Positions 961-60,209 of a stretch of 64,000 bases of DNA are shown here, piece by piece. The notes beneath the pieces were generated by a model. The model did not search any database, was not told the DNA's origin, and saw only the letters and a list, made by a program, of their open reading frames with translations. The position numbers and the translations under genes are program-made. Source of the stretch: Nemertoderma westbladi (Eukaryota > Animalia > Xenacoelomorpha); assembly GCA_032718475.1 (NCBI GenBank), contig JAUCBJ010002919.1, positions 55,044 through 119,043 on the forward strand. Direction: 5' to 3'. How positions within the stretch are numbered: the stretch's first letter is position 1; each line of letters begins with the position of its first letter.

Positions 961-2967
961 TGTTGAAGGAAGAAGGTAAGATAAATACGATGTTTATTCC
1001 GCGTAATAGACCCGAATATATATAAATATATAAGCGTATAGCATAGCTGTATGGTATTGTGTATCACAGTATTAGGCCTACGTCACTCAATAATTTCAAC
1101 AGTCAGACACGTAGGTTGGTCAAAGAAAACTTTTCCGAATTTCAACTCAGTTCGCATCGCACATCAGATGTCATCAAATGGGCCCAAACTTTGATAGATA
1201 CCAAAATTTCGATTTGGGGATGACAGGAACTGCCACGGCAGCAAGGGTACGGCAGACGGCTGCACGGGCCAAATGCAGTAGGCCTAATGCTGTAATGCCA
1301 TACCCTGACCCGGGGCCGGGACCCGTACCGGTAATGCTGTAGGCCTACTCCCTATCTGCCTATTCTGCTATTGAAAATATTTAAATGTACGCCGAACACG
1401 TTCGGCGCAGGATTTAAACTTGCGCCGGGAGCGGGAGCGGGCTCAGTAAGGGAAAATACCCCGAATCGGGGCATAGAGGCAAACCCCGATTCTGGGTTTT
1501 GTAATGCCCCGATTCTGGGGTCTCCCATAGACATTTTTTCTCCTTAATTTCCGCATGTAAGATTTTAATTCCGCAATTTCGTTTTAACATATTCGAATAC
1601 ACATTTATATGTTCTACAAATAAGAAAACTTTGGAGTAATAATGAAATCTTCCGGCTTCAATATTGTACCGGAAAATCTAATGTAAATTGTACCCCGAAT
1701 CAGGGTATCCAGGACTCCCTGTACCCCGAATCGGGGCTTGCGATATTTTCATACAGCCTGCAGAGCACCGATTCGGGGTCAATATTTTCTAGTACACCGA
1801 TTCAGGAATTCAATTTTCTCGAAAATACACCGAATCGGCTCTTTTTTTCCACTCAGACACCGATTCGGTGTATATTTTCTAGTCGTTATTTATATTTTTC
1901 AATGGATTTCCTGATGTAATTTATATTTTAATTAGAATTAATATTATATAAAGTAACAAATTAATTAAAATATTTAATATATTTGCGATGCGAGTATATT
2001 TGATGATTTCATATTGTATTATTGTTAGTTATTAATTATTATACGTACTTTGTCATTGTAATTAATGTATACTACGTTTTAGTGCTTATTGTTAGACAAA
2101 TTGCAATTATATCTATATATAATATTATGTGCTATGATGTACTATAATAATATTATAACTATAATACTATAATAATAATATAATGACAGTCAATGTGTTA
2201 ACTGGGATGGCTCTCCTAATGTCTGTCTCAGTGGGCAATGGAGAATAGTGTGCTATGGAAAGTATTAAGTAATAACGAATCTGCCTTTTTGTATGAAGTT
2301 GGAGGCTGAAAGAAATTTGGGATCTATCTATCTATGTGGCGGGCTGGAGGGCCTTGTTTGTCCACAAAATGGCTTGGCCGCACGAGCATTTAATGAAACA
2401 CTGTGAAACAGGTATCGAATGAAATGTTCTCTAGTTGGTGAAAAAAAAAGTTTGAAAATCTTAGACCAAAGGGTGTCGAGAAATTGACATGTATTGGCTT
2501 TTTGCACAAAATACTCATTTCAGCTGATTTTCAGCGGTTCTACAAGTGGGAACTAATTATTTTACATGGTAAGAATAACTTATTCTTATATAAATATTAA
2601 ATTGCTAGTCTCTAATCTCTATAACCCATTCCATCAAAGTCTTTAATTAATTTAAGAAATTAATGTTAAGAATGCATGTTTTTAATTGATTGAAATGATT
2701 TAAGTGATATTTATTGTTGAATTATCCACGCTGGACACATATTTCCATAGACCACTATTATAGGTAGATTAGCCTTCTTAATTCAGCCTAGCTAGAACTC
2801 CATCTTGCTTGCTTCCATCCAATCACAGACTAATAACTGAATAACTACCTACTATTATCTACTGAATATGAATAATGTATTGACAATAGATATCATATTG
2901 CCGGCAGGTTCAACGAACTGTGTTTATTACACGAACGGATTACGTGGTAAACATTAAACAACTGTAA

Positions 2968-3173
2968 CATAGTGTATGGATGATATAAATCAAATATAAT
3001 ATTGAGGGTCTTTCTGTCTTTAGCTGGTTTATATTATATTAATTAAAGATAACACTAGTAAACGTTTTCAACGGTTTCTGCATCAGACTATTATCTTTCT
3101 GTCTTAAATTAATATAATAAACCAGCTAAAGACCCTCAATATTTTATTTCATTTCTATCATCCATACACTGTG
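2968..3173. repeat. Imperfect ~75-bp inverted repeat (foldback) inside the transposon
   Basis: CATAGTGTATGGATGATA...ATATTGAGGGTCTT...TAGCTGGTTTAT (from 2968) is the reverse complement of ...ATAAACCAGCTAAAGACCCTCAATAT...TATCATCCATACACTGTG (to 3173). No convincing TSD. Confidence 0.7.
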
Positions 3174-3469
3174 TTTATTACCTGATTTATTTGTAAGCTA
3201 TTTCCCACGGTGTTAGTTGATCAGAGTGGCTATTTGGACGAGCCATAAAGGCAGCCAAGACGCATTTACAATTAGCATAATGGTTATTCCTCGGGCCGAG
3301 CCGCAAACGGTGTTGTGAGACATTAGCAAAAAAAATAAAGTGAAAAATAAAATTAAAATTAAAAAAAAAATAAAATAAGATTTAAAAAAATATGATTTTT
3401 GATTGATTATTTATTACAAATACATTATAATAATTAAAAAGGGTAATAAATTTCGCTATTTAAGAAAGC

Positions 3470-4120
3470 CATATCGATCCGATGAAGCCGAGTCGAACTG
3501 ATGGAGCCGAGTCGAACCTATCGAGCTGAGTTGAACCTATCGAGCTGAGACAAACCTATCGAGCCAAGTTGAACCTATCGAACCGAGTCGAACCCATCAA
3601 GCCGAGTCACACCAATTGAGCCAGATCAAGATGAGTCAGACCGTTTGAGCCGAGCCGAACCTATTGAGCCAAGTCGAACCTATTGAGCCGTGTCGAACCC
3701 ATTGAGCAGAGTCGAACTGATTGAGCCGGATCATGCCGTCTTGGACCGATTGAGCTGGAACGAACCTGTCGAGTGGGACTGATAGTGCCGAACGTATCGA
3801 GCTGAGTCAAACTTATCAAGCCGTGTCAAACCTATCGAGCCGAGTCAAACCTAAGGAGCCGAGTCGAACTGATCGAACCAAGTCGAACCGAGTCAAACTG
3901 ATCGAGCCAGATCAATTGGAGACGAACCAATTGAGCTGAATCGAACCGATCAAGCCATGTCGAACCAATCAAGCCAAGTCGAACCATGATCGAGCCGAGT
4001 CGAACCATGATCGAGCCGAGTCGAACCATGATCGAGCCGAGTCGAACCATGATCGAGCCGAGTCGAACCAATCGAGCCAAGTTTAACTGATTGAGCCGAG
4101 TCGAACTGATTGAGCCGAGT
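3470..4120. repeat. Degenerate ~20-21-bp minisatellite (GAGCCGAGTCGAACC[T/A]ATC-like)
   Basis: Repeated gagccgagtcgaacc units, most homogeneous at 3980-4080; source of the spurious ORFs at 3832-4282. Confidence 0.85.
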
Positions 4121-5246
4121 AAATAGGCTTATGTAAGTATGTATGTGCACAATATTGGCTGTATGTATGTACATATTGACATTGGCCCTAGCACCTAGCT
4201 GATAGCAGGACAGGCCATTAGAGTTTGTAATAGGCTTCCAGTAATGATTGGAACCTAGATATTGTCTGCATGCTGGTGCCACCCATACCAGGGCAATAGA
4301 TTTGTCTGCATGGTCACTCAGGGTACTAGTTTGATGGGCAGGTACGTTTAAAGCCAGCTTGCTGGCCTTCTAGTTGAGTTGATGTAAAGGACAAGGCTAT
4401 ACATGGCAATAATAATAAGATCAATTTGTATTCTATTTATTTTAGTTAGATTACCCATAGCCTCGTTTAACATTGCTGCCTAGTTGAATTAGTCTGCCGC
4501 CCAACCTCAACAGCAACGCCGAGTAAAGCCAGGAAATCAGGAATGCTTATAAATTTAATCAGTCTAAATAAAACAAAATATAAAAGCAGAAGCAATATTC
4601 CATTCCAATATTGGATTCCAACGCAAACAAAAAGGTTCAAAGCAAGAATGACTTTCATCAAGTACACAATAATTAATTAATCTATAAAGTCGTAAAATGA
4701 AATTAACTCAGGATTGATTTTATTTTACCACACTTTTAGTGACAAGAGTCATTTATTAGAATCGTATGTTAAAATCAACGCCAGGAATTGCGCCATAATA
4801 TTCAATATTACAGTATTATATGTACACAAACACAACATAGCGCCAATCGGCACTCTGTCAGCCAGTGCCAATGAAGAATAGCCATTGCAATCATAATATG
4901 ATTGATTGACAGGTTCCACTTGACAGATTTCACAGGGAACTAAATAACTCCTATACCCTGATTCGGGGTATACCTAATTTTTTCCGCTGCCTGGAGATTT
5001 TCTAGTAGAACACCAATTCGGGGTATACCTTTCTACTGAAAATCTCGAATCGGTGTCACTATTTTCCACTATAACACCGATTCTGGGTATAGAGCAGTAC
5101 CCCAATTCGGGGTATTTTCCCTTACTGGGGCTGGCTGGCACAGAAATGTTCAGCCCCAGCATAGCATTGGCGTAGCATTACCAAGCAGCCAAGGACAGAC
5201 TGACAGAAGGAAAGGACCAAGCCGGCGCAGGATTTTTTGCACTTGG

Positions 5247-6079
5247 CAGTCGGGGAGCCATTTCTGTATTTTCAACTGAGTTGAAAATCAAATTTATTTT
5301 TTAAAATTCAACTTTTTATTAAAATTCAACTTTTGGAGTAGGCTACTACGTACTAGCAGACTAGACAGCTACCGGCTGACCGGTACCGGTAGTGCGGTAG
5401 TTTAAAATTCACCTTTTTTAAAAATTCAAATTTTGGAGTAGGGCCTAGCTTTGCAGCTTTGGACTGTTCTTGGAAATAATGAAATAAGGAATTGGAACCC
5501 ATTACTGCATTAGTCTGTTAGTCATGGTAGCAGGCCTATTCCATTATAATAACAATAATTAGGCCTATGACATTCAGCGGTAATTTACAGATTTAATACC
5601 GGGCTGCCGGGTACATCTAAAAAATTCCTGTAGTATTTCAGTATTTCAGCTACCCGGTTGCGGTAGGACTACCCCAAACCAGCTAACAGCCTAATTTGCA
5701 AATGTAACCACTTAAAATGTTTTAAATAAAAGTATTCCCGACGGTGAAAGTTTTTATTCCATTGGTAATGAGGGTCAATTTTTCGAATTACGGTACCGGT
5801 CAGCCGGTGGCCGGTCTGTCGGTACATCAATAAAAACAATTAAAACAAAACACCCCTTACAGCCTTATGTCACGTCTTGGGCAGTTGGGGGCCTTCTGCA
5901 GTTCTGCATGTTCTGCCTGCCTGCCATTTTACAGTTTTAGAGTTGAATTTACAACCTGACAACTTCTGAACTTAAGGCCTAAAAGTTGAACTTAAAAAAA
6001 AGTTGTAGGCCTACAGGCCTACCGGTCTGCCGGTATATTTCAACTCAGTTGAAATTTGAACTTCTCCTCTCCCCAACTG
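5247..6079. mobile_element. MITE with CAGT(C/T)GGGGAG termini and 5-bp TSD CTTGG
   Basis: Left end CAGTCGGGGAG (5247); right end CTCCCCAACTG (ends 6079). CTTGG at 5242-5246 and 6080-6084. Inner arms TTCAACTGAGTTGAAA...TTCAACTTTT (5271-5316) are mirrored at 5981-6054. Confidence 0.78.
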
Positions 6080-7629
6080 CTTGGCAGCTTGGCGCCGCGT
6101 TCTGGCAGTCTGGCGCTCGGCGCAGAAAATAAAACTTTTCAATAGGTAGCCTAGATAGGCTGTAATGTAATGGTAACGTGCAGACGTCTGGACCCGGCTG
6201 CCCGGTACTCTGTAACTGCATAGGCCTAATCTAGTAGGCTAGCTGTACAGCTGTACACTTTACAGCGAGGCAGCTGTACCTGTCAGCCTGTAATGCAGTA
6301 CAGACGTGCCGGTTGCCGGTACCGCGGTACCGGAGTTTAATCTGTAGGCCTAGCTGCCTAGTCTGTAGTCCAGTCAGCCAGTGGTCTGCTAGCAGGCTAC
6401 CGCCAGACCGCAGTGCAGTACCGGGCAGCCGGGTACCGTAGTTCATTAAAAAAACGAATGTACCGGTAATCAAAATAAAATGATTCCCGGTCAGCCGGTA
6501 GGCCCTATTAAAAAAACTAATGTTTGTCAGTTAGTTCAGTTTCAGTAGTTGTCCTGTTGTCTCTTACATCTTAGTCTCTGTATCTTCTTATTTCAGTATT
6601 TCAGTTTTTGAGCTACCGGTGACCGGCTGACCGTGGACCGGTAGAGTCTGGCTCATGCCTGCATGCTACCTGTCCTATACTGCTATATAGTATATACGGT
6701 ACTGCTATAGGCTGATAGGCCTATGCAGATACTGAAAAGCAGATCTGAGACATGCCTAATTATTCATAATTACTGAATTAGCTGATTCCGGATTCGTGAT
6801 CTGCTGATAAGTGATAAGAAGACATGACGTGAGAGTAACAAGTAATCCCACAAGCGTAAGCTTGTGTAACCATAACCTACTCGTAGGCTACGCGTAAGCG
6901 CAGGCGATGAAAAGCAGTTTCGACTAGTTACATTTTTGCGTAGCAGCGTAGTGCTGTAGAGACCAATGAATTAAGTCTGGGCACGAGCTACCGCAATGCA
7001 GAGCCACAACGACATGCGTCGAGTATAGGGATATACAGTTATACCGACCCATACCCACCTAATACCGGGACCTGCCGACCTGTCTGCCGTACCGCGCTAT
7101 CACCAACCTACTGTATAAATTGGCTACTAAATATGACTCTTTATTTTAACCAGTAAAGATTTTTTGTAGTGAAATTATCTGATTATTGTTGCCCGTAGCC
7201 GTAAGTGTGCCTGCGAGTAATGTTCTCCTTTTTATTTCATTTTATATGTTAAACATAGATTAATAAAGGAGTGTTTTTTACTTTTATTATTATGTATAGC
7301 TTCGCCAGCTCCTCCGAATGCCGAGAAAGATCAGATCAGAACCCCGGGTTGCGCGAACCGCGCTCCCGGTACATAGAAGCAGACTACACGTCGATCTCGA
7401 CGTGTAGTCTGCCCCCGGTTAGACCCTAACCGAGTCCGAACCGAGTCAGTTCTCAAGATATAGGCGTTGTTACGGCGATCATGCAGCAAACCTGGGGACC
7501 TCTTAATACCGCATCGCGAAGAGAGTTCTAAAGTTCCGTGGTTCATCATCCTGGTGCATATTCGATTTCCTTTGCACATTAAAATATTCACGTATCCGAC
7601 GATGTTTGACGCTAAATGCTGAGTATCTT

Positions 7630-10350
7630 AGGCTGTAGACGTCCTGCGTTCCTTTGCGTTGATGATATCCATCCAATTAGGAACATTGGTTATTGAACCA
7701 CGAATTACATCCTTTGAGTATTCATGGTTAAGTGGGGAAATTGGCTGTGGGACTGGATAACACTGGACGCATTTTGAGTATGCTATGCTGAGCCAGCAGT
7801 CATAATATGTCTTAGAACCATCATTTCCCTCATGCCAGATTATACTCCGTATAATGTAGTGGAGAGGGATAATAGGGCAGTTTGTAATGCGCATAATCAG
7901 ACCGGCGGCCGCTCTATAAACTTTCTGCACTTATAGAATTTGTTTTCACCAGATGGTAGATACATCCATTCGAGACATAGTTTCCAACCATGAATAAGCC
8001 ACGTAAAGTTTTCCTATAATAAGCATCAAGTTGAGCAGAGTGTTTGTCACTTAATCCAGCAGTCAGTCAGGAAAACGAAAGTATATACTGTAGTAGCGAC
8101 GGCAATGCAAATGTATTCCATAGTTTTGAAATTTCTTCAGCATTACACCAGCGCGAGTTCCATCCCAGCTTGTGGAATCTTTCTGACATAATTGTTATGG
8201 CTTTCAGGCATTCTCTGAAGCAGTTGACGGAGGAGCTTGATGCATATAGCTTATGACCTAGAAAATTTGTTTTCATCCAGTGTGTTTTTGAATTTTCTAT
8301 TCGTAGATCTATAGAGGTTAGACCAGTTTCAATGGTTCCAACCATGGGTTCTATTGAAGAGGGCATGGTACTCAACAGTAAAATGTCATCGGCAAAGGAT
8401 ATGCACCCTGCCCATATCCTATATGCAGTACAGCCCAACTGTAGTTGCTTTACAGCACATAATACATCCTTCATATAGTAATTGAATAATAAGGGTGATA
8501 ACAGTGACCCCTGCTTTATACCCTTAGTCATAATCAATCCAATATGTCGATTTCTGTCCCGAACTTTAAATACGCAAGACCAATGGAATAGTAGTCCAGC
8601 AAGAGTAATGATATATAGGGATTCATCGTATTGGCCAGTTTGCTGATGAGGGTAACATGATTCACATTGTCGAAGGCTCCTTCTATATCCAGTTGACAGA
8701 CATATAATCCTGACCCTTGCTGGTGATAGTAATCCATTATTTCTAGCACCGTTGCTACAGTATTACCATATCAGGCCCTTTTCTTGGCTTATAAGCCCAC
8801 ACTGTAAGTCATCACTATCCACATTGCCCATATAGTGCTGTGCGATGATTGACTCAAACATCTTCGCAAAAATACATATTGAACTAACGGGTCGGTATGA
8901 GCTGGGATCATTTCTCTGTTTACCCTTACCCTTATATAGACTGCTAATTACGGTGTTGCCGAACAATAGTGGTAGGCGGCCCAAGTGAAGAGCTGCTGCT
9001 AGCACTTTCTCCATTGATTGACATATCGTGGTTGGCTGCAAGTGGAGGATATGCTCAACTGTCAATGAGTCGGATAGTTATAAAACTCGAAAATAACGAA
9101 AAAGACGAAATTAATAGCAAAAATATCGAAATTATAAAACTTTAAATAAATTCTCGCTGTCCAGTGAGATAGGTATTATTAGAAGGCACACTTTACATTT
9201 TTTAATTAATAAAATCCGATAATTTCGCCCCATTTTCGACCCTAAAAGTAATTTAATACCAAATACTGTCTCTGCTGATTGGTATTTAGGGGTAATCCAA
9301 TGATGGCAAAACACCACAAGATGGAGCTCAAAATAGGACAATACAGTCAGAGTGTAGGCCTACTGCATTGCCACTACTGCACAGCAGTTCTGTCTAGGTA
9401 TGTTCCCCAGTCAGCCTGTTCACAACCACAGCGCCACTTTCTTGGCAGTCACTGTACAGTGTATTAGGGCCCTACACCTGTAACGCGGAGGTACCGTACA
9501 CCGTAATGCGTATGCAGTGAGATGCAGTGCTATGCTTGTGATACACCAGAACACTGATCAGCTGATGCTGAATTGATTCATCCAAGCCGCCATTATTGGT
9601 CAACATCCAACAACCAACCAGCAGACAGTATTTGGTATTAAATTACTTTTAAGGTCGAAAATGGGGCGAAATTATCGGATTTTATTAATTAAAAACTGTC
9701 AACCAGTTTCTTTCTTCTATCTTCTTTGCCAACCAGTTTCTTAATCGTCGAGGAGACCTTTTTGACTGTAGGTAAGACTCATGTATCGGATCATTCATAT
9801 CTTTGCCTTGGTTACACTTCAACACATTTGGCGTATTTTTCTAGCTCCTCGGATGTACATTTCTTCCAATTAAAGCGTAAGTGTATTTTGCTGCATTTAA
9901 AATTGTTTTCCGCGGTGTTATTTTTATATGGAGTGTTGCTGTGTTTCCTAATTTTAATGGTACCAGTAACAGGAACGTGGTCCGAGCTGTTAGAGTCAGT
10001 CTCCTGGCAGCTAACTTTTCCGTCAATAAATGTGGCGCAGCCACTCGTGTTGGTTAAGATATGGTCTATGTATGTGTTTCCATGTCCATAGAAGGTTATA
10101 CATGGGCCATCAAATATATTTGTGGTGTCAATCGCAGTCAAACCCGAGTCTCCCTTATAGTTCATTGTAACTTCCCTCTCTTAGTTGGCTTTATACGATC
10201 ACAGCAATACCTTGGCCCTTGGCCTGCGCCGATGTCTGCATTGCTATCCATTAATATGTATGGGACAGCATTGGAGTATATTGATTTTAGAGATTCTATT
10301 CTGCTCAGAAATTCCGTATAAGCTGTGTCTCCCTTACTGCAATCGGGAGC
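7630..10350 (-). mobile_element. Degenerate non-LTR retrotransposon ORF2 (APE endonuclease + reverse transcriptase; RTE-X/L2-like), frameshifted
   Basis: Endonuclease motifs ILMDSNAD, TYIDHIL and SSDHVPV (9812-10260). RT motifs KGKGKQRNDPSSYRPVS, LDIEGAFDNVNH, GIKQGSLLSPLLFNYY and FADDILLL across ORFs 8067-9065. Boundaries approximate. Confidence 0.88.
9075..9699. mobile_element. Foldback/MITE-like insertion interrupting the LINE
   Basis: ~80-bp inverted arms TTTTTAATTAATAAAATCCGATAATTTCGCCCCATTTTCGACC...ATACCAAATACTGTCT at ~9197-9280 and ~9615-9697. The LINE frame resumes on both sides; the right end appears truncated. Confidence 0.7.
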
Positions 10351-34995: not shown

Positions 34996-36660
34996 AGTAT
35001 ATTTCACAAAATATAGGCAAATAAATTTAGCGGCATCCATTTGTAGTATAGGTACTGTACACAAAATTTACACCTATCATGAAGACGAGCTATACAAACT
35101 TGCAACACAGGAAATGATTTTAATTGGTTGTGATTGGTGAACTTTGCTGCATGCCTGATAAGTGATAATGATTAGTTCTGCTTGCTATAGATATTGTTTG
35201 CATATTTGCTTGGCTTGATATTATTTGTGTGGTAAGATGGATAAGGATAAGACTATGTCTGACAGACAGAGGAACTGACTTCTGTTGGTTTGGTATGCAA
35301 AATTATTACGTTTAAAGGTCAACATTTAAAATATTAAATGTTCAAAGGTCATTTCTACCAATTTTCATATGAGTGCATAACGCAATATCGTACCAAGCTG
35401 CCAAGTTTGGTTTAATTCCATCAATAATTAATGATTAACGGACATGGTTTTATCAAAAGTCTGAAACTACCGGTACCGACAGAGCGACTGGTGACTGGCA
35501 GACGGTCTGATTTAACATGGCAACTTGAAAGGACCAGAGGACAGGAGGACTCAGGACTGCAGACTGAATCCCTGAATCTGAATGATGCAATGGCAATGGG
35601 GGAATTAGGGATTGACAAATTTCAGGATTTGGCATCTTATTACAGTATTAGCTTCGATTAAAAAGTGATAAAGAATTCTGGATGCTGGAATGGCCTTCTG
35701 ACAGTCTGAACTGCTGAACTGGTGCGAAGTCCCAGAGTCCAGACAAGGACAAGCTGACAAGACACCCGGAAAAGTCCAAGGTAGGTCAGTGCAGCAGTAA
35801 TACTGTAATAGCTGAATAGGCAGTAGCCTGTAGCTGTAATAGTGGCCAGGGGCCTACCACCAGACTGCCAGACCACAGTCAGACAGTACCGGCAGACAGG
35901 CAGACTGCAAGAATAAATAAATCAGTCACAGTTGACAGTCCTGCTGTCAGTAATAGGCCTACTGTAATACCGGTACCGTACAGTCGTAGGCTACCCCTAT
36001 CTGCCTATGCCGTACCGTACAGCCGTACCGTAGGCCTAGTCAGTCTACGGTACTTTCAGACGTTACCGGTATTTGATTATCAGATTATTAAATCATGATA
36101 CATTTTTTTGTAGCATAGGCCTACCGGTAGGCCTAACAGCCTAATTCTTAAGGGCCAACATGAAAAAAAGATAGAACGAAATTCCTTTCCTGGCAGACCG
36201 GTACCAGTACTGCAGTAATGCACTCTAATGTTACAATTACAACAGTCTGTCTGACAGTATGCAGTACATACATGTAAAAAGTAAGTACTGGAATCGGATT
36301 CCAATTATCGTACTCTTCAACTGATCAACTAACGCTAACGCCTGTTTCTGCCTTACCCAGGCCTGCAGGCAGCCAGGTACCGCGTTACCCAGATACAGGT
36401 ACCTACGACCTACCTACCTACTCAAAAACCGAATGACCAATAATTTAGTGTTCTGTTTCTCGAATATTCTGATATTTACGCCTATCAGCCTATTACTGTA
36501 TTACGTACCGACAAGGGCAACTACTGAACTAGAGACTGAGAGCTGGAGAGCCGCTTAGCTAACTACCTACGTAAACCAAATACCGGTAGGCCCTACTGGA
36601 TATTGCAGTAGGCCTATTGAGTTCCGTTATGGAACGGTACGGTACGGGTACGCTTTGCAG

Positions 36661-37256
36661 GGGTGACAGACCGAACGTAATCAGGATCGAATGTAACATA
36701 GTTTTTATGAATCGAACGTAACCTCAATTATGTTACATTGGATCCTATAACTATGTTACATTCGATCTACAAATTACTAAGCTCGAATGTAACATACTAG
36801 ATTCTGGATATTAACATATGTACATTTATTTCAGTTGTGTTTTGATTTCAGGAGTTAACCAATGAAATGCTTCGTTTATTTACAGGAAAAAACAGTTTGG
36901 TGAGTACAAAACAAAGACCCAAGACCCAATTAAGTAACCTGCATAATCTTGTAACATGTGTTAACTTTCGTTTATTGTTTTGGTTCCCCCAACACGCCTC
37001 TGTAACCTGCTCCTTTCAGCCTTTAAATAAAAGTAACCTGCATAATCTTGTAACATGTGTTAACTTTTGTTTATTGTTTTGGTTCCCCAACACGCCTCTG
37101 TAACCTGCTCCTTTAAATGTTACATTCGGACTTAGTAATTTGTAGATCGAATGTAACATAATTATAGGATCCAATGTAACATAATTGCGGTTACGTTCGA
37201 TACGTAATAAAATAATTATGTTACATTCGTTCCTGATTACGTTCGGTTATGTATCC
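36661..37256. mobile_element. Mutator-like (MULE) MITE with ~130-bp TIRs and 9-bp TSD
   Basis: Arms ACCGAACGTAATCAGGA..CGAATGTAACAT (36670-36795) are mirrored at 37118-37250. GG...CC termini; flanks GCTTTGCAG (36652-36660) and GCTTGGCAG (37257-37265). Internal ~100-bp tandem duplication at 36931-37115. Confidence 0.8.
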
Positions 37257-37700
37257 GCTTGGCAGTTATTAAAGTTGCAATAACCTTTGAGTGTGAGTGT
37301 GCATGGATTTTGCTCAAGTTTTTCAAAACCTTTTCTACTTCAATCAGTCAATGCTCTTTCAACTGTTCAACACATGTAATAAAATTTAAGATATTCCACC
37401 AAAAATATTTTATCTTAATTCTTTCGCAGGAAAAAGTCAAATCAATGCGATCAGCAATCCTATGGTTTTTTTCCCTTGGGAAAAAAGTACTTCCGCTAGT
37501 TTTTCTCCTGCTTTTGGGGTATATCAGTCAGTAGGCATTCGAGCTAAAAAAAGTTATAAATTTTTAAGAATAAAAATATTTACTCAGTCTGTTTCATCCA
37601 TTGTTACTTATTTCTAAGATGTGTTATTTTTCATTTATAGACTTAAAGCTTAAGTAAAATACAAAAGGCTACCGCCATCTCAATTCTCCCATCTACCCCT

Positions 37701-39377: not shown

Positions 39378-40014
39378 GTAATAATAATAAAGTTATAAAT
39401 TGTTAAATATTATTTAGACTAGAGAATCTATATATAATATTAACTTTTCAATTATAAATGGAACTTGAACACTATATGCCTAACACAACTACCGGCCCAC
39501 GACGAGTACCACACCGAACTTAGTTATACAATAACCATGACCAGCCGGAGTCAAGCATATGGAGCGCCTAGCATGTATAAAAATGGCCCCTCCGTTCTAC
39601 CTCACCAGCACCAGTGCAATTATATGTGTATATTTACCTCGAGAATTGTGAAAAAAGTTATACTTTTTTCCCAACTAATAAAATTATTATTTACCTTTTA
39701 CAATCCTGCATTGTCGTGTAACTCGTGTTAACTTTAGTTTATTGTTTTGGTTTACCCAATCCGCCTCTGTAACGTGCTCGCTCCTTTACTAACTTGCCTA
39801 CATCACGGTACAAATACAATTTAACGAATTGATGCCAAAGAATAAATGTCAGCACATTTTAAAAGTATGTCCACTTGTTTCGCTTGCTTTACCGAATATA
39901 ATACCGAACATTTTTTCTATTACTTCGTACACAATTTCCTCGTCCCTCTAACACCAAGGTATCTTGTTTAAATATGAAGCGAGTTTGAAAGATGTCGTTC
40001 GCGGCGAATACATA

Positions 40015-40627
40015 CTAAAATCGAGTTATATTGGTGTTGTAAGGGTCTAAGCCACGATTCTAAGTAAAACAAATTCCTTTTTATCATATGGCCATTTCGT
40101 GTATTAACACACGTCTTCAGTGATATAAATATATATTAAAATGTTTACATAATATACATATTAAAATAAGTACGTACGCGGTTAAATTTAATTGAATAAT
40201 ACTGTAAAGATACTAATTTATACGAGGCTATCGTACAGTACATGCCTGGTTATTTTCGGATGAACAATCGACAAAATGCGAAGTGTGAATAAAATATGAG
40301 CACTGGTAAAAAAAAGAGATTAGGCTGACATGGAGGATAAGTTAAATTAAAATAGGTAAGGAAAATAAAGTTAAATATATAATAATGTGATACTTTTCGG
40401 ATGAACATTCGATAAAATGCGAAGTGTGACCAAGGCTAGGTAGATACAATTAATTAAGTTAAAATAAGTAAAAATAAATAAAAAGATATACGGCAGTTCA
40501 GGTATGGACGGCTTGGAAGGTACAATTAAATAAAATGAAATAAAGTGAAATGAAATAAAATAAAATTATTTAAAACATGAGCAGACAATCAGACGACCCT
40601 TACAACACCAATATAACTCGATTTTAG
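40015..40627. mobile_element. MITE with perfect 33-bp TIR and TA flanks (Tc1/mariner-type)
   Basis: CTAAAATCGAGTTATATTGGTGTTGTAAGGGTC (40015-40047) and its exact reverse complement (40595-40627); TA on both sides. Confidence 0.8.
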
Positions 40628-40747
40628 TAAGGTATCTTGTGACGTAGATGTTTTTGCATTCCCGTACGATTGTACGATAGAAATCACAAAGTGAGTTATA
40701 TTTGTCTCAACTCTTTATCTTTACTCGGTCCGTCTCCGTTGTTTTAG

Positions 40748-42560: not shown

Positions 42561-43023
42561 ATATTTTTACTCACCATATTTTTACTCGCCATGTTTTTAC
42601 TCACCATGTTTTTACTCACCATATTTTTACTCACCGTATTTTTACTCACCATGTTTTTACTCACCATATTTTTACTCACCATGTTTTTACTCACCATGTT
42701 TTTACTCACCATGTTTTTACTCACCATATTTTTACTCGCCATATTTTTACTCACCATGTTTTTACTCACCATGTTTTTACTCACCATGTTTTTACTCACC
42801 ATGTTTTTACTCACCATATTTTTACTCACCATATTTTTACTCGCCATGTTTTTACTTACCATGTTTTTACTCACCATATTTTTACTCACCATGTTTTTAC
42901 TCACCATGTTTTTACTCACCATGTTTTTACTCACCATGTTTTTACTCACCATGTTTTTACTCACCATGTTTTTACTCACCATGTTTTTACTCACCACGTT
43001 TTTACTCACCATATTTTTACTCA
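42561..43023. repeat. 15-bp minisatellite CCAT(G/A)TTTTTACTCA, ~31 copies
   Basis: Near-perfect tandem array; 2-3 further units at 43942-43977. Confidence 0.95.
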
Positions 43024-43870
43024 AAACCGGTCACCCTTCACAAAACTCACCTGTCTAAGAAAGAGTTCCGCGACGCTCTGTGTCTGCGCTACGGCTGGCA
43101 ACCGAAGTCGCTTCCTTCTCGTTGTGTCTGTGGGGAACGATTTTCCCCCTTCACACGTCCTGTCGTGCCCCACCGGGGGTTATGCCTCGATAAGGCACAA
43201 CGAGATACGCGATTTCGTTGCCGACGCTCTAACCGAAGTAGCCCACAACGTCACAGTAGAGCCAACACTCCAGCCTCTGACAGGTGAGGAGTTCACCCAC
43301 AGATCCACCTCCACAGAAGATCAGGCGAGGTTGGACGTCTCTGTCAGCGGGTTCTGGGGTGGCCGCTTCGAGAAGACTTACTTCGACGTCTCGGTCTACA
43401 ACCCTCTAGCGGCCACCAACGCAGCCATGACCACCGAGGGCGCTTATTCCCACCACGAGGCGCGGAAACGCCTAAAGTACGAGGAGCGCATCCGAGAGGT
43501 CGAACTGTCGTCGTTTGTGCCTCTGATACTTTCAGCCTTTGGCGGTACGGCGCCAGCGATGCAACAGTTCGTTAAGCGTTTATCGCTTAAACTCTCGGAT
43601 CGTCGCGACCTCAGCTACTCTGAGTGTATCTGCTGGACGCGGAGGAAGATAAGCTTCGCGCTTCTCCGCTCCAGTTTGATGTGTCTCCGTGGAGCGAGAT
43701 CCGCCGCCAAACGCCCCGTTTATCATCAGGTGTCCGCAGACTCGATTCGCCTGACTAACGCCGATACCAACACCGGCTAGACTGACTGTCAGTGGTCGTC
43801 ATAGGCCTCTAAACAGGCCCTTCTTTCTTTATTTATTTTTTTATTATGTTTATGTTTATAATTATGTTGC
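43024..43870 (+). mobile_element. 5'-truncated CRE-clade non-LTR retrotransposon (zinc knuckle + restriction-like endonuclease)
   Basis: LSKKEFRDALCLRYGW..CVCG..(frameshift ~43145)..HVLSCPTGG..RHNEIRD..RLDV..GFW..FDVSVYNP..HEARKRLKY..FVPLILSAFGG..LRGAR; stop at 43780, followed by an AT-rich tail. Confidence 0.82.
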
Positions 43871-44895: not shown

Positions 44896-45705
44896 CTCAC
44901 TTCTCGGTAACCTAGACAGGTTCTCGTTAACACGGGTTGTACTGTGGGGCAGGGACCCGTCGCCGTCACTCCTCGGTAACCTACACAGGTTCTCGTTACA
45001 CGGGTTGTACTGTGGGGCAGGGACCCGTCGCCGTCACTCCTCGGTAACCTACACAGGTTCTCATTACACGGGTTGTACTGTGGGGCAGGGACCCGTCGCC
45101 GTCACTCCTCGGTAACCTAGACAGGTTCTCGTTAACACGGGTTGTACTGTGGGGCAGGGACCCGTCGCCGTCACTCCTCGGTAACCTAGACAGGTTCTCG
45201 TTAACACGGGTTGTACTGTGGGGCAGGGACCCGTCGCCGTCACTCCTCGGTAACCTACACAGGTTCTCGTTACACGTGTTGTACTGTGGGGCAGGGACCC
45301 GTCGCCGTCACTCCTCGGTAACCTAGACAGGTTCTCGTTAACACGGGTTGTACTGTGGGGCAGGGACCCGTCGCCGTCACTCCTCGGTAACCTACACAGG
45401 TTCTCGTTACACGTGTTGTACTGTGGGGCAGGGACCCGTCGCCGTCACTTCTCGGTAACCTAGACAGGTTCTCGTTAACACGGGTTGTACTGTGGGGCAG
45501 GGACCCGTCGCCGTCACTCCTCGGTAACCTAGACAGGTTCTCGTTAACACGGGTTGTACTGTGGGGCAGGGACCCGTCGCCGTCACTCCTCGGTAACCTA
45601 GACAGGTTCTCGTTAACACGGGTTGTACTGTGGGGCAGGGACCCGTCGCCGTCACTCCTCGGTAACCTAGACAGGTTCTTGTTAACACGGGTTGTACTGT
45701 GGGGC
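44896..45705. repeat. 68/69-bp GC-rich minisatellite, ~12 copies
   Basis: Unit GGGCAGGGACCCGTCGCCGTCACTCCTCGGTAACCTA(G/C)ACAGGTTCTCGTTA(A)CACGGGTTGTACTGTG. Confidence 0.95.
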
Positions 45706-45819
45706 CGTTAAATAATTTATACTATAGGCTCCGCATAATTTTATTTGAAAGCTACACAACTTCAATTTTTTATCAACATTTTATTATTTATTTTTTTTAA
45801 TAATACAATATTTTTATAG

Positions 45820-46000
45820 ATATTGCGTTATAATACGCACCAGTGATCTGGTGGCTTTGAGAGTTTCTGTATTAGAAGATGCGATTCCGTCGGCTGTTAA
45901 ACCCGCAGCTAATCGTGTCGTTCCCGTTAAAGATGTTCTAGAGTTGGTTGCACCGGGTTTGCCTCTTGGTTGTTTGAAGTTGGGAACTTCTGATTCTAAG
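45820..46000 (+). CDS. SIPA1L: SIPA1-like Rap-GAP gene, coding exon 6
   Basis: YCVIIRTSDLVALRVSVLEDAIPS...VKDVLELVAPGLPLGCLKLGTSDSK matches SIPA1L RTSELMTLRGSVLEDAIPS...LKEVLE; donor AAG|GTTGGT; phase 2->0. Confidence 0.92.
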
Positions 46001-48016
46001 GTTGGTGTCATTATTCCTACTGATTCTAAGGTTGGTGTCATTATTCCTACTGATTCTAAGGTTGGTGTCATTATTCCTACTGATTCTAAGGTTGGTGTCA
46101 TTATTCCTACTGATTCTAAGGTTGGTGTCATTATTCCTACTGATTCTAAGGTTGGTGTCATTATTCCTACTGATTCTAAGGTTGGTGTCATTATTCCTAC
46201 TGATTCTAAGGTTGGTGTCATTATTCCTACTGATTGGTGTCATTATTCCTACTGATTCTAAGGTTGGTGTCATTATTCCTACTGATTCTAAGGTTGGTAT
46301 CATTATTCCTACTGATTCTAAGGTTGGTGTCATTATTCCTACTGATTCTAAGGTTGGTGTCATTATTCCTACTGATTCTAAGGTTGGTGTCATTATTCCT
46401 ACTGATTCTAAGGTTGGTGTCATTATTCCTACTGATTCTAAGGTTGGTGTCATTATTCCTACTGATTCTAAGGTTGGTGTCATTATTCCTACTGATTCTA
46501 AGGTTGGTGTCATTATTCCTACTGATTCTAAGGTTGGTGTCATTATTCCTACTGATTGGTGTCATTATTCCTACTGATTCTAAGGTTGGTGTCATTATTC
46601 CTACTGATTCTAAGGTTGGTATCATTATTCCTACTGATTCTAAGGTTGGTGTCATTATTCCTACTGATTCTAAGGTTGGTGTCATTATTCCTACTGATTC
46701 TAAGGTTGGTGTCATTATTCCTACGGATCCTAAGGTTGGTGTCATTATTCCTACTGATTCTAAGGTTGGTGTCATTATTCCTACTGATTCTAAGGTTGGT
46801 TTCATTATTCCTACGGATCCTAAGGTTGGTGTCATTATTCCTACTGATTGGTGTCATTATTCCTACGGATCCTAAGGTTGGTGTCATTATTCCTACGGAT
46901 CCTAAGGTTGGTGTCATTATTCCTACTGATTCTAAGGTTGGTGTCATTATTCCTACTGATTCTAAGGTTGGTGTCATTATTCCTACTGATTCTAAGGTTG
47001 GTTTCATTATTCCTACTGATTCTAAGGTTGGTGTCATTATTCCTACTGATTCTAAGGTTGGTGTCATTATTCCTACTGATTCTAAGGTTGGTGTCATTTT
47101 TCCTACTGATTCTAAGGTTGGTGTCATTATTCCTACTGATTGGTGTCATTATTCCTACTGATTGGTGTCATTATTCCTACTGATTGGTGTCATTATTCCT
47201 ACTGATTGGTGTCATTATTCCTACTGATTCTAAGGTTGGTGTCATTATTCCTACTGATTCTAAGGTTGGTGTCATTATTCCTACTGATTGGTGTCATTAT
47301 TCCTACTGATTGGTGTCATTATTCCTACTGATTGGTGTCATTATTCCTACTGATTGGTGTCATTATTCCTACTGATTCTAAGGTTGGTGTCATTATTCCT
47401 ACTGATTCTAAGGTTGGTGTCATTATTCCTACTGATGATTCTAAGGTTGGTGCCATTATTCCTACTGATTCTAAGGTTGGTGTCATTATTCCTACTGATG
47501 ATTCTAAGGTTGGTGCCATTATTCCTACTGATTCTAAGGTTGGTGTCATTATTCCTACTTATTCTAAGGTTGGTTTCATTATTCCTACTGATTCTAAGGT
47601 TGGTGTCATTATTCCTACTGATTGGTGTCATTATTCCTACTGATTCTAAGGTTGGTGTCATTATTCCTACTGATTCTAAGGTTGGTGTCATTATTCCTAC
47701 TGATGATTCTAAGGTTGGTGCCATTATTCCTACTGATTCTAAGGTTGGTGTCATTATTCCTACTGATTCTAAGGTTGGTGTCATTATTCCTACTGATTCT
47801 AAGGTTGGTGTCATTATTCCTACTGATTCTAAGGTTGGTGTCATTATTCCTACTGATTCTAATGTTGGTGTCATTATTCCTACTGATTCTAAGGTTGGTG
47901 TCATTATTCCTACTGATTCTAAGGTTGGTGTCATTATTCCTACTGATTCTAAGGTTGGTGTCATTATTCCTACTGATTCTAAGGTTGGTGTCATTATTCC
48001 TACTTATTGGTGTCAT
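45991..48016. repeat. 30-bp (with 22- and 33-bp variants) tandem array spanning the exon 6 donor site, ~70 units
   Basis: Unit TGATTCTAAG|GTTGGTGTCATTATTCCTAC; the first 10 nt of the first unit are exonic. Confidence 0.96.
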
Positions 48017-48040
48017 CCGGGTACTGTAAACCTGTACCTA

Positions 48041-51000
48041 GAGGACATGAAATCCTCGCTTTTTACTTAGTATATATTTGTCCGCTAACTTTAACTTAAT
48101 ATATATATATAGTTAGAAGACATGTCCGCTAACTTAATATATATATAGTTAGAAGACATGTCCGCTAACTTAATATATAGTTAGACGACATGTCCGCTAA
48201 CTCAATATATATCGAGTTAGAAGACATGTCCGCTAAATTAATATATATATATAGTTAGAAGACATGTCCGCTAACTTAATATATAGTTAGAAGACATGTC
48301 CGCTAACTTAATATATATATAGTTAGAAGACATGTCCGCTAACTTAATATATATATAGTTAGAAGACATGTCCGCTAACTTAATATATATATAGTTAGAA
48401 GACATGTCCGCTAACTTAATATATATAGAGTTAGACGACATGTCCGCTAACTTAATATATATCGAGTTAGAAGACATGTCCGCTAACTCAATATATATCG
48501 CGTTAGAAGACATGTCCGCTAAATTAATATATATATATAGTTAGAAGACATATCCGCTAACTTAATATATAGTTAGAAGACATGTCCGCTAACTTAATAT
48601 ATATATAGTTAGAAGACATGTCCGCTAACTTAATATATATAGAGTTAGACGACATGTCCGCTAACTTAATATATATAGAGTTAGAAGACATGTCCGCTAA
48701 ATTAATATATATATATAGTTAGAAGACATGTCCGCTAACTTAATATATAGTTAGAAGACATGTCCGCTAACTTAATATATATATAGTTAGAAGACATGTC
48801 CGCTAACTTAATATATATAGAGTTAGACGACATGTCCGCTAACTTAATATATATCGAGTTAGAAGACATGTCCGCTAACTCAATATATATCGAGTTAGAA
48901 GACATGTCCGCTAAATTAATATATAGTTAGAAGACATGTCCGCTAACTTAATATATAGTTAGAAGACATGTCCGCTAACTCAATATATAGTTAGAAGACA
49001 TGTCCGCTAACTTAATATATAGTTAGAAGACATGTCCGCTAACTTAATATATAGTTAGAAGACATGTCCGCTAACTTAATATATAGTTAGAAGACATGTC
49101 CGCTAACTTAATATATATCGAGTTAGAAGACATGTCCGCTAACTCAATATATATCGAGTTAGAAGACATGTCCGCTAAATTAATATATAGTTAGAAGACA
49201 TGTCCGCTAACTTAATATATAGTTAGAAGACATGTCCGCTAACTCAATATATAGTTAGAAGACATGTCCGCTAACTTAATATATAGTTAGAAGACATGTC
49301 CGCTAACTTAATATAGAGTTAGAAGACATGTCCGCTAACTTAATATATAGTTAGAAGACATGTCCGCTAACTTAATATGTAGTTAGAAGACATGTCCGCT
49401 AACTTAATATATAGTTAGAAGACATGTCCGCTAACTTAATATATATAGAGTTAGAAGACATGTCCGCTAACTTAATATATATAGAGTTAGAAGACATGTC
49501 CGCTAAATTAATATATAGTTAGAAGACATGTCCGCTAACTGAATATATAGGTAGAAGACATGTCCGCTAACTTAATATATAGGTAGAAGACATGTCCGCT
49601 AACTTAATATAGAGTTAGAAGACATGTCCGCTAACTCAATATATATCGAGTTAGAAGACATGTCCGCTAACTCAATATATATTGAGTTAGAAGACATGTC
49701 CGCTAACTTAATATATAGTTAGAAGACATGTCCGCTAACTTAATATATATAGAGTTAGAAGACATGTCCGCTAACTCAATATATATCGAGTTAGAAGACA
49801 TGTCCGCTAAATTAATATATAGTTAGAAGACATGTCCGCTAAATTAATATATAGTTAGAAGACATGTCCGCTAACTTAATATATAGGTAGAAGACATGTC
49901 CGCTAACTTAATATATAGGTAGAAGACATGTCCGCTAACTTAATATATAGTTAGAAGACATGTCCGCTAAATTAATATATAGTTAGAAGACATGTCCGCT
50001 AACTGAATATATAGGTAGAAGACATGTCCGCTAACTTAATATATAGGTAGAAGACATGTCCGCTAACTTAATATATAGTTAGAAGACATGTCCGCTAACT
50101 TAATATATATAGAGTTAGAAGACATGTCCGCTAACTTAATATAGAGTTCGAAGACATGTCCGCTAACTTAATATATATAGAGTTAGAAGACATGTCCGCT
50201 AACTTAATATATAGTTAGAAGACATGTCCGCTAACTTAATATATATTGAGTTAGAAGACATGTCCGCTAACTCAATATATATCGAGTTAGAAGACATGTC
50301 CGCTAACTTAATATATAGTTAGAAGACATGTCCGCTAACTTAATATATAGGTAGAAGACATGTCCGCTAACTTAATATATAGTTAGAAGACATGTCCGCT
50401 AACTTAATATATATAGAGTTAGAAGACATGTCCGCTAACTCAATATATATCGAGTTAGAAGACATGTCCGCTAACTCAATATATATCGAGTTAGAAGACA
50501 TGTCCGCTAACTTAATATATAGTTAGAAGACATGTCCGCTAACTTAATATATAGTTAGAAGACATGTCCGCTAACTTAATATATATAGAGTTAGAAGACA
50601 TGTCCGCTAATTTAATATATATAGAGTTAGAAGACATGTCCGCTAACTTAATATATAGTTAGAAGACATGTCCGCTAACTTAATATATAGTTAGAAGACA
50701 TGTCCGCTAACTTAATATATATTGAGTTAGAAGACATGTCCGCTAACTCAATATATATCGAGTTAGAAGACATGTCCGCTAACTCAATATATATCGAGTT
50801 AGAAGACATGTCCGCTAACTTAATATATAGTTAGAAGACATGTCCGCTAACTTAATATATAGGTAGAAGACATGTCCGCTAACTTAATATATAGTTAGAA
50901 GACATGTCCGCTAAATTAATATATAGTTAGAAGACATGTCCGCTAACTGAATATATAGGTAGAAGACATGTCCGCTAACTTAATATAGAGTTAGAAGACA

Positions 51001-54000
51001 TGTCCGCTAACTTAATATATAGTTAGAAGACATGTCCGCTAACTTAATATATATAGAGTTAGAAGACATGTCCGCTAACTTAATATAGAGTTCGAAGACA
51101 TGTCCGCTAACTTAATATATATAGAGTTAGAAGACATGTCCGCTAACTTAATATATAGTTAGAAGACATGTCCGCTAACTTAATATATATTGAGTTAGAA
51201 GACATGTCCGCTAACTCAATATATATCGAGTTAGAAGACATGTCCGCTAACTTAATATATAGTTAGAAGACATGTCCGCTAACTTAATATATAGGTAGAA
51301 GACATGTCCGCTAACTTAATATATAGTTAGAAGACATGTCCGCTAACTTAATATATATAGAGTTAGAAGACATGTCCGCTAACTCAATATATATCGAGTT
51401 AGAAGACATGTCCGCTAACTCAATATATATCGAGTTAGAAGACATGTCCGCTAACTTAATATATAGTTAGAAGACATGTCCGCTAACTTAATATATAGTT
51501 AGAAGACATGTCCGCTAACTTAATATATATAGAGTTAGAAGACATGTCCGCTAATTTAATATATATAGAGTTAGAAGACATGTCCGCTAACTTAATATAT
51601 AGTTAGAAGACATGTCCGCTAACTTAATATATAGTTAGAAGACATGTCCGCTAACTTAATATATATTGAGTTAGAAGACATGTCCGCTAACTTAATATAT
51701 AGTTAGAAGACATGTCCGCTAACTTAATATATAGTTAGAAGACATGTCCGCTAACTTAATATATATTGAGTTAGAAGACATGTCCGCTAACTCAATATAT
51801 AGTTAGAAGACATGTCCGCTAACTTAATATATAGTTAGAAGACATGTCCGCTAACTTAATATATATTGAGTTAGAAGACATGTCCGCTAACTTAATATAT
51901 ATAGAGTTAGAAGACATGTCCGCTAATTTAATATATATAGAGTTAGAAGACATGTCCGCTAACTTAATATATAGTTAGAAGACATGTCCGCTAACTTAAT
52001 ATATATTGAGTTAGAAGACATGTCCGCTAACTTAATATATAGTTAGAAGACATGTCCGCTAACTTAATATATAGTTAGAAGACATGTCCGCTAACTTAAT
52101 ATATATTGAGTTAGAAGACATGTCCGCTAACTTAATATATATAGAGTTAGAAGACATGTCCGCTAATTTAATATATATAGAGTTAGAAGACATGTCCGCT
52201 AACTTAATATATAGTTAGAAGACATGTCCGCTAACTTAATATATATTGAGTTAGAAGACATGTCCGCTAACTTAATATATAGTTAGAAGACATGTCCGCT
52301 AACTTAATATATAGTTAGAAGACATGTCCGCTAACTTAATATATATTGAGTTAGAAGACATGTCCGCTAACTCAATATATATCGAGTTAGAAGACATGTC
52401 CGCTAACTTAATATATATCGAGTTAGAAGACATGTCCGCTAACTTAATATATAGTTAGAAGACATGTCCGCTAACTTAATATATATTGAGTTAGAAGACA
52501 TGTCCGCTAACTCAATATATATCGAGTTAGAAGACATGTCCGCTAACTTAATATATATTGAGTTTGAAGACATGTCCGCTAACTCAATATATATAGAGTT
52601 AGAAGACATGTCCGCTAACTTAATATATAGTTAGAAGACATGTCCGCTAACTTAATATATATTGAGTTAGAAGACATGTCCGCTAACTTAATATATATTG
52701 AGTTAGAAGACATGTCCGCTAACTCAATATATATAGAGTTAGAAGACATGTCCGCTAACTTAATATATAGTTAGAAGACATGTCCGCTAACTTAATATAT
52801 ATTGAGTTAGAAGACATGTCCGCTAACTCAATATATATCGAGTTAGAAGACATGTCCGCTAACTTAATATATAGTTAGAAGACATGTCCGCTAACTTAAT
52901 ATATATTGAGTTAGAAGACATGTCCGCTAACTCAATATATATCGAGTTAGAAGACATGTCCGCTAACTTAATATATATCGAGTTAGAAGACATGTCCGCT
53001 AACTTAATATATAGTTAGAAGACATGTCCGCTAACTTAATATATATTGAGTTAGAAGACATGTCCGCTAACTCAATATATATCGAGTTAGAAGACATGTC
53101 CGCTAACTTAATATATATTGAGTTAGAAGACATGTCCGCTAACTCAATATATATAGAGTTAGAAGACATGTCCGCTAACTTAATATATATTGAGTTAGAA
53201 GACATGTCCGCTAACTCAATATATATCGAGTTAGAAGACATGTCCGCTAACTTAATATATATTGAGTTAGAAGACATGTCCGCTAACTCAATATATATCG
53301 AGTTAGAAGACATGTCCGCTAACTTAATATATATTGAGTTAGAAGACATGTCCGCTAACTCAATTAATATATAGTTAGAAGACATGTCCGCTAACTTAAT
53401 ATATATTGAGTTAGAAGACATGTCCGCTAACTCAATATATATAGAGTTAGAAGACATGTCCGCTAACTTAATATATAGTTAGAAGACATGTCCGCTAACT
53501 TAATATATATTGAGTTAGAAGACATGTCCGCTAACTCAATATATATCGAGTTAGAAGACATGTCCGCTAACTTAATATATAGTTAGAAGACATGTCCGCT
53601 AACTTAATATATATTGAGTTAGAAGACATGTCCGCTAACTCAATATATATCGAGTTAGAAGACATGTCCGCTAACTTAATATATATCGAGTTAGAAGACA
53701 TGTCCGCTAACTTAATATATAGTTAGAAGACATGTCCGCTAACTTAATATATATTGAGTTAGAAGACATGTCCGCTAACTCAATATATATCGAGTTAGAA
53801 GACATGTCCGCTAACTTAATATATATTGAGTTAGAAGACATGTCCGCTAACTCAATATATATAGAGTTAGAAGACATGTCCGCTAACTTAATATATAGTT
53901 AGAAGACATGTCCGCTAACTTAATATATAGTTAGAAGACATGTCCGCTAACTTAATATATATAGAGTTAGAAGACATGTCCGCTAATTTAATATATATAG

Positions 54001-57000: not shown

Positions 57001-58638
57001 TAGTTAGAAGACATGTCCGCTAACTTAATATATAGTTAGAAGACATGTCCGCTACCTTAATATATATCGAGTTAGAAGACATGTCCGCTAACTTAATATA
57101 TAGTTAGAAGACATGTCCGCTAACTTAATATATATAGAGTTAGACGACATGTCCGCTAACTTAATATATATCGAGTTAGAAGACATGTCCGCTAAATTAA
57201 TATATATATATAGTTAGAAGACATGTCCTCTAACTTAATATATAGTTAGAAGACATGTCCGCTAACTTAATATATAGTTAGAAGACATGTCCGCTAACTT
57301 AATATATAGTTAGAAGACATGTCCGCTAACTTAATATATATCGAGTTAGAAGACATGTCCGCTAACTTAATATATAGTTAGAAGACATGTCCGCTAACTC
57401 AATATAGAGTTAGAAGACATGTCCGCTAACTCAATATATATCGAGTTAGAAGACATGTCCGCTAACTTAATATATAGTTCGAAGACATGTCCGCTAACTC
57501 AATATAGAGTTAGAAGACATGTCCGCTAACTCAATATATATATATATAGTTAGAAGACATGTCCGCTAACTCAATATATAGTTAGAAGACATGTCCGCTA
57601 ACTTAATATATATATAGTTAGAAGACATGTCCGCTAACTTAATATATATCGAGTTAGAAGACATGTCCGCTAACTCAATATATAGTTAGAAGACATGTCC
57701 GCCCACTCAATATAGAGTTAGAAGACATGTCCGCTAACTTAATATATATAGAGTTAGAAGACATGTCCGCTAACTTAATATTTATAGAGTTAGAAGACAT
57801 GTCCGCTAACTCAATATATATCGAGTTAGAAGACATGTCCGCTAACTCGATATATAGTTAGAAGACATGTCCGCTAACTTAATATATATAGAGTTAGAAG
57901 ACATGTCCGCTAACTCAATATATATCGAGTTAGAAGACATGTCCGCTAAATTAATATATATATATAGTTAGAAGACATGTCCGCTAACTTAATATATAGT
58001 TAGAAGACATGTCCGCTAACTTAATATATATCGAGTTAGAAGACATGTCCGCTAACTTAATATATAGTTAGAAGACATGTCCGCTAACTTAATATATAGT
58101 TAGAAGACATGTCCGCTAACTTAATATATAGTTAGAAGACATGTCCGCTAACTTAATATATATCGAGTTAGAAGACATGTCCGCTAACTTAATATATAGT
58201 TAGAAGACATGTCCGCTAACTTAATATATATATAGTTAGAAGACATGTCCGCTAACTTAATATATATATAGTTAGACGACATGTCCGCTAACTCAATATA
58301 GAGTTAGAAGACATGTCCGCTAACTCAATATAGAGTTAGAAGACATGTCCGCTAACTCAATATAGAGTTAGAAGACATGTCCGCTAACTTAATATAGATC
58401 GAGTTAGAAGACATGTCCGCTAAATTAATATATATATATAGTTAGAAGACATGTCCGCGAACTTAATATATAGTTAGAAGACATGTCCGCTAACTTAATA
58501 TATAGTTAGAAGACATGTCCGCTAACTTAATATATAGTTAGAAGACATGTCCGCTAACTTAATATAGAGTTAGAAGACATGTCCGCTAACTTAATATATA
58601 GTTAGAAGACATGTCCGCTAACTCAATTTCATGTCCTC
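48041..58638. repeat. 32/36-bp palindromic satellite (~300 units) bounded by 13-14-bp inverted termini
   Basis: Unit GTTAGAAGACATGTCCGCTAACT(T/C)AATATATA[+/-4 nt]; GAGGACATGAAAT at 48041-48053 and ATTTCATGTCCTC at 58626-58638. Confidence 0.95.
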
Positions 58639-60140: not shown

Positions 60141-60209
60141 TGGTAAAATAACACCAATGACAGCTTGTTGATGGAATTTACATTTGATTGATGACTTCCG
60201 ACTTGCTTA

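Follow-up and report, generated by a model that had tools for sequence, protein, structure and literature searches.

Genes, repeats and motif tracts in the window

The window, that is, the whole 64-kb stretch of Nemertoderma westbladi DNA analysed here, carries two divergent genes with a 23.5-kb satellite of a 31-bp unit between them (10952-34445). The start of the coding sequence of a PP6R/SAPS gene occupies 1-960 on the minus strand, with the start codon side at 960, and its protein is 38-47% identical to homologues among the matches listed. At least 320 codons of this gene run without an intron, and the neighbouring RapGAP-like gene has long introns; exons of the latter lie on the plus strand from ~44 kb onwards, with Pfam domains PF21022 and PF02145 in the downstream exons. 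Exon 1 of the RapGAP-like gene, a likely 5′ UTR, lies at 35475-35780 (plus strand), where a single 4,935-bp contig from run X4 spans the exon and then continues as sequence from 37641, across a GT...AG intron (intron 1, 35781-37640, plus strand). The 5′ side of this contig carries adapter-like letters, and X4 is treated as cDNA-like on the splice junction and these letters only. Exon 1 contains seven ATGs ahead of the probable start in exon 2. Another stretch covered by an X4 contig (6729-7280) begins directly after an AG, contains AATAAA at 7262 and ends 13 nt past it; it may be the terminal exon of a non-coding transcript that runs divergently to the SAPS gene.

Across the window, 76 perfect N5-C(A/T)G-N5 motifs were counted, each consisting of CAG or CTG between two copies of the same 5-mer and referred to below as scars. 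Hotspot 1 (5128-7200) holds 37 of them, 35 within 5160-6800, together with minor-spacer and decayed scars. A gene-proximal part of the same tract (1040-1443), with perfect scars at 1285, 1351 and 1360, is cut off from hotspot 1 by a 3,684-bp element; with the element subtracted, tract 1 extends from 325 to ~2,500 nt upstream of the SAPS start codon, and its position relative to the transcription start is one that we infer. Hotspot 2 (35390-36660) comprises 25 perfect scars, located from 82 nt before to 1,063 nt after the 5′ end of the cDNA-like contig, so that tract 2 starts ahead of that end, passes through exon 1 (8 scars inside) and runs into intron 1. Markov simulations predict 0.03-0.32 motifs for 35390-36560, where all 25 lie, and 28 are present in 35390-37360. 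Neither hotspot 2 nor the small cluster at 1285-1360 (3 motifs) had appeared in an earlier note on this DNA, which described the crowding in hotspot 1. Repeated 8-bp additions within 35475-35780 would shift the upstream reading frames of the seven ATGs.

Two further motifs are piled up in the same tracts (1040-1443, 5128-7200 and 35390-36660): TAGGCCTA occurs 13 times against 0.22 expected and TACCGGTA 8 times against 0.56 expected, with no occurrence of either in 16 kb of background. They probably represent scars left by other elements, with TA as their target. RapGAP-like introns harbour arrays of 69-, 30- and ~34-bp units (44897-58623). At 9071-9700, a 350-bp stretch containing scar-like motifs is enclosed by inverted copies (two; 80 nt, 96%) of a repeat at very high depth, the CAG-bearing ends of which face it. 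Broken retrotransposon pieces with reverse-transcriptase fragments (Pfam PF00078) are found at 7500-9100, 43020-43780 and 60200-61020; one ORF among them, with no Pfam match, presumably resembles the endonuclease end of CRE-type elements. Two long-TIR non-autonomous elements, at 36670-37247 (94-nt arms at 93%) and 40013-40629 (35-nt arms at 100%), are not of the CAG/5-bp type.

Specificity and decay of the five-base duplications

In the segment singled out by the earlier note (5160-6800), for which ~30 perfect motifs had been reported, 35 are present (20 CAG and 15 CTG), and the 12 examples quoted there lie exactly where they had been placed (12/12). Markov simulations of order 1-4 (1,000 runs each) gave means of 0.06-0.38 motifs for this segment and a maximum of four. 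Among lag-8 repeats of at least five bases, 35 of 40 were N5-C(A/T)G-N5, with the next spacers occurring four times or fewer each. The edge of the duplication is sharp at 5 bp: when the hot tracts were pooled, N5 flanks were found at 65 of 224 CWG sites and N6, N7 and N8 flanks at none (0/224), and matches just outside the 5-mers numbered 13-23 of 71 per neighbouring offset, which is the chance level. N2-CWG-N2 likewise occurred at chance (16 against ~15). The 5-mers mostly differ from site to site while the spacer is constant, full 8-bp tandem copies are rare and other lags are approximately at chance. In the tracts of this window, the excess is thus confined to C(A/T)G spacers and to 5 bp, the specificity on which the original claim had been made to depend. 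Scars occur at 18-23 per kb within the tracts and at 0.2-0.8 per kb in most of the remaining DNA, and the 960 bp of SAPS coding sequence contains none. Contigs from three DNA runs (X1, X2 and X3, from two samples) are identical to the window over 6117-7246 and over 35452-36686, with 0 differences in either interval, so the motifs are not assembly errors. The crowding of 8-bp additions, each a CAG or CTG together with one extra copy of the adjoining 5-mer, is confirmed as real.

CAG and CTG scars are balanced (37:37 among 74 scars). In the 3,748 bp of hot DNA, the borders of which were drawn from the scar data themselves, CWG spacers number 64 against 0.32 expected. Two shorter classes are also in excess, namely CA/TG/CG (18 against 1.0 expected) and C/G (13 against 2.1 expected), each at a level reached in 0 of 200 simulations; these sets were taken from a Sleeping Beauty paper, after the lag-6 and lag-7 lists had already been inspected. 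The remaining spacers of 1-6 nt are approximately at expectation (4 against 1.9, 6 against 3.4, 10 against 3.9, 5 against 4.2, 7 against 4.1 and 6 against 4.0), and the no-spacer class (12 against 4.6) shows no excess over the background inflation (41 against 19). The CA, TG, CG, C and G spacers are the same as the minor footprints of Sleeping Beauty in the part of that report available to us (10.1101/659086), and this spectrum adds support for mariner-like staggered excision.

The 5-mers of the scars have a roughly symmetric logo of not-G, not-G, any, not-C, not-C. Compared with peeled local background, G is low at positions 1 and 2 (p = 4e-5 and 3e-6) and C is low at position 4 (p = 1e-4), with a C depletion at position 5 at p = 0.07. 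Avoidance of G at positions 1-2 and of C at position 4 is as expected of a palindromic target site, as described for P elements in the accessible text of PMC2577343. Near-perfect forms are also in excess (~29 with one mismatch and ~19 with two), which indicates a range of ages. Perfect scars account for 14% of tract length, and the excess one- and two-mismatch forms raise this share to ~24%. Iterative peeling brought to light just a single nested scar, which lies in tract 1.

Resident elements, scar-free copies and inheritance

Both of the intact CAG...CTG elements with 5-bp target site duplications (TSDs) that had been reported in or beside the cluster were recovered. The first, a 3,684-bp non-coding element beside hotspot 1 (1444-5127), has CAGT...ACTG ends, a TSD of GGGCT, terminal inverted repeats (TIRs) identical over the first 23 nt and palindromic subterminal repeats. 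Its ends reach ~20-fold over single-copy depth in X1, a depth that is not to be read as a copy number. It divides tract 1 and contains only three scars, consistent with a later arrival. The second, an 833-bp non-autonomous element inside hotspot 1 (5247-6079), has CAGT...ACTG ends, a TSD of CTTGG, a TIR match of 10/11 nt and palindromic subterminal repeats, and is directly followed by a CAG-CTTGG scar. Its ends are at high depth and its interior is single-copy. Seventeen of the 35 scars sit within this element; they are therefore younger than it and are not its own footprints, and the element itself became a target after landing. Other copies of it lack 49 bp before 5691, a length not divisible by 8.

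Twenty-one CAG...CTG pairs reach a TIR identity of at least 10/11; among them, just these two have an exact flanking duplication of at least four bases, and in both it is five. The anticipated agreement between element TSDs and scar 5-mers held for CTTGG, which falls in the top range of the scar logo, and failed for GGGCT, which scores below all 74 scars (n = 2); the 3,684-bp element may come from a different family or simply be atypical. The two elements are presumably linked to the scars. None of the 76 ORFs in the window (10 + 66, at least 68 aa) matched a transposase in Pfam, the matches being only SAPS, RapGAP and reverse-transcriptase fragments, and an Rfam scan of the window returned 0 matches.

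The 8-bp unit also separates related copies. An inverted-repeat arm contains TCTTT-CTG-TCTTT at 3009-3021, where its partner arm (3105-3182) shows TCTTT just once. Likewise, the first copy of a 99-bp tandem duplication contains CCTTT-CAG-CCTTT at 37012-37024, and the second has a single CCTTT, with only four matching bases to its right. In both in-window repeat pairs (2/2), the difference is thus precisely one 8-bp unit. In a high-depth paralogue of the host repeat, 5242 is followed by 8 letters and then by 6113, which makes it a net 862 bp shorter; this figure is the sum of the element (833), its TSD (5) and three 8-bp units, with the perfect scars at 6080 and 6101 providing two of these units. 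At hotspot 2, 13 of the 14 repeat-derived contigs among the matches listed have alignments starting at 35401-35403, which is where the scar at 35393 has its second copy; this is no more than suggestive. The prediction that sequences would differ by exactly these 8-bp units was therefore borne out between paralogous copies and not between alleles: among the matches listed for the two DNA samples, no allelic 8-bp difference was seen at tract 2 or at 6117-7246. An X2 contig aligned over 5705-6066 differs by 23 gap letters, which is no whole number of 8-bp units. Neither resident element was found replaced by a scar in any contig (0 contigs), and the forms that lack an element at 5242-6120 are also free of the scars and are probably paralogues. 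The middle bases of the scars are the same in the three DNA runs and in the cDNA-like run, which argues for germ-line inheritance and against somatic elimination.

Proposed excision model and relation to known transposons

We read the motifs, with a probability of roughly 0.85, as inherited excision scars of CAG-ended cut-and-paste transposons with 5-bp TSDs and presumed 3-nt CAG overhangs. The earlier note had proposed such a system, combining a 5-bp TSD with mariner-like staggered excision and repeated entry and exit, and the specificity of the motif, the paralogous 8-bp units and the minor spacers support that proposal. An element would land at a 5-bp site of loosely palindromic sequence (not-G, not-G, any, not-C, not-C), which it would duplicate, a step for which both the elements with CAG ends and 5-bp TSDs and the target logo are observed. 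By analogy with Sleeping Beauty, the transposase would then nick the non-transferred strand at each end, 3 nt into the element, producing two 3′-CAG overhangs that could pair around an A:A mismatch. End-joining would yield N5-CAG-N5 or N5-CTG-N5 equally, and more rarely CA, TG, CG, C or G spacers, a spectrum that is observed and a pathway that is conjectural. The cycle would recur in the germ line, in open chromatin at gene 5′ ends, with 8-bp additions tolerated outside coding sequence. Location at a gene 5′ end is observed for tract 2 and presumed for tract 1; open chromatin is its presumed cause.

In the available portions of the Sleeping Beauty literature, staggered cuts leave 3-nt overhangs, the repair of which gives TA-CAG-TA or TA-CTG-TA (10.1101/659086, PMC8151067), with minor footprints of CA, TG, CG, C, G or nothing (10.1101/659086). 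The likeness to Tc1/mariner extends to the CAG ends, to TSD-CAG-TSD and TSD-CTG-TSD as main products and to CA, TG, CG, C and G as minor ones. However, the TSD is TA in Tc1/mariner, whereas here it is a variable 5-mer, non-TA in both elements, and TA-CWG-TA is not enriched in the tracts (5 against 4.0).

The same scars could be made by a hairpin-forming hAT/Transib-type enzyme if its first nick fell inside the element and the terminal bases in the hairpin loop survived opening, and many hAT elements do start with CAG. The 5-bp TSDs (2/2 intact elements), TIRs and subterminal repeats seen here also recall hAT5, a described animal group with 5-bp TSDs within the Blackjack lineage (Kapitonov and Jurka 2007, as cited in the accessible part of PMC12730594). 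However, tested hAT elements excise via flank hairpins and leave variable footprints with flank-complementary insertions and deletions, according to the available sections of PMC3499496 and PMC8151067, whereas the junctions here are uniform, with both 5-mers intact, an element-like spacer and other spacers near chance, in counts that junctions having lost TSD bases would escape. We consider such an origin improbable. Transib/RAG elements have CAC ends, in contrast to the CAG ends and C(A/T)G spacer found here. They share with the present elements a 5-bp TSD and CA..TG termini, the CMCT clade being described in the parts available of PMC12730594 and PMC8151067 with CA..TG termini, TSDs of up to 5 bp and, as a further difference, hairpin excision.

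Still less probable is an origin independent of resident elements, in which C(A/T)G is added directly at 5-nt staggered breaks in open chromatin by the transposase-like or repair enzyme that made them, or in which an insertion is reversed at once within one complex. About 20 scars per kb would be very high for full cycles of insertion and excision, the contigs yielded no excision product of either resident element and one TSD misfits the logo; against this, elements with exactly such ends and 5-bp duplications lie in and beside the tract, and the minor spacers are those of overhang repair. Programmed somatic removal of germ-line elements, with the scars marking germ-line insertions, would suit the uniform junctions, but 50:50 repair would mix the middle bases, whereas three DNA runs equal the window throughout 35452-36686, and the scars are mutationally decayed and differ between paralogous copies, which makes this explanation very remote. 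Repeats formed by slippage, a direct-repeat motif under selection for a regulatory role or an error of assembly, which the position of the tracts at gene starts and their richness in short repeats might suggest, are already largely excluded by 5-mers that vary around a fixed spacer, the rarity of 8-bp tandem copies, other lags near chance and confirmation by independent runs.

For excision scars of a staggered-cutting transposon, the reading that we prefer, P elements offer a partial parallel, as they excise by non-hairpin staggered cuts, with a stagger of 17 nt, and show a promoter bias; TSDs in their superfamily may also be 7 bp. The palindromic target motif and hotspots of P elements, in the accessible text of PMC2577343, are further likenesses, but an 8-bp TSD and long retained ends there differ from 5 bp plus 3 nt here. 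A gene-associated ACAGT microsatellite in Trichoplax, as far as the available part of PMC2871265 describes it, resembles the scars in being a short CAG-containing unit heaped near genes in an animal genome; it is a fixed five-base unit, whereas the 8-bp unit here has a variable 5-mer. A subterminal-motif scan of viral contigs gave six loci with single chance matches, and a scar-plus-palindrome scan gave 12 metagenome loci, none with more than two scars, and 0 viral loci; neither scan revealed the pattern in another organism, a result of little weight because these collections are poor in animal contigs.

In our literature search we did not find a description of N5-C(A/T)G-N5 scars, of hAT5 terminal sequences or excision, or of 5-bp landing combined with mariner-style exit; the original hAT5 reports and two classification papers lay outside this search, which does not establish absence from print. 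The enzyme may be hAT5-like, at somewhat less than even odds, with only slightly lower odds for a Tc1/mariner-related lineage with a 5-bp target and, equally, for another DDE group. Excision chemistry is treated as a superfamily trait, with flank hairpins in hAT/Transib and staggered hydrolysis with TA targets in Tc1/mariner. An element with free 5-bp targets and mariner-type scars breaks that pairing, pointing to a mechanistic switch inside hAT or to an unclassified transposase. There are about even odds that an undescribed cut-and-paste system, either hAT5-like with mariner-style staggered hydrolysis in place of flank hairpins or a new lineage related to mariner whose 5-bp target is free, is drawn to the starts of genes. 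Such a system would have produced, 8 bp at a time, up to a quarter of the DNA close to promoters and in 5′ UTRs, and would have left a genome-wide, self-dating archive of germ-line insertion sites that is readable by one regular expression. Because each scar keeps its own target sequence, the scars reveal, without experiment, the target logo of an uncharacterised enzyme, the range of its repair products and the places where it has inserted. Given that they make up 14% (perfect) to ~24% (with decayed forms) of promoter-proximal tracts, the coming and going of transposons would rank among the main forces that shape regulatory DNA in this animal.
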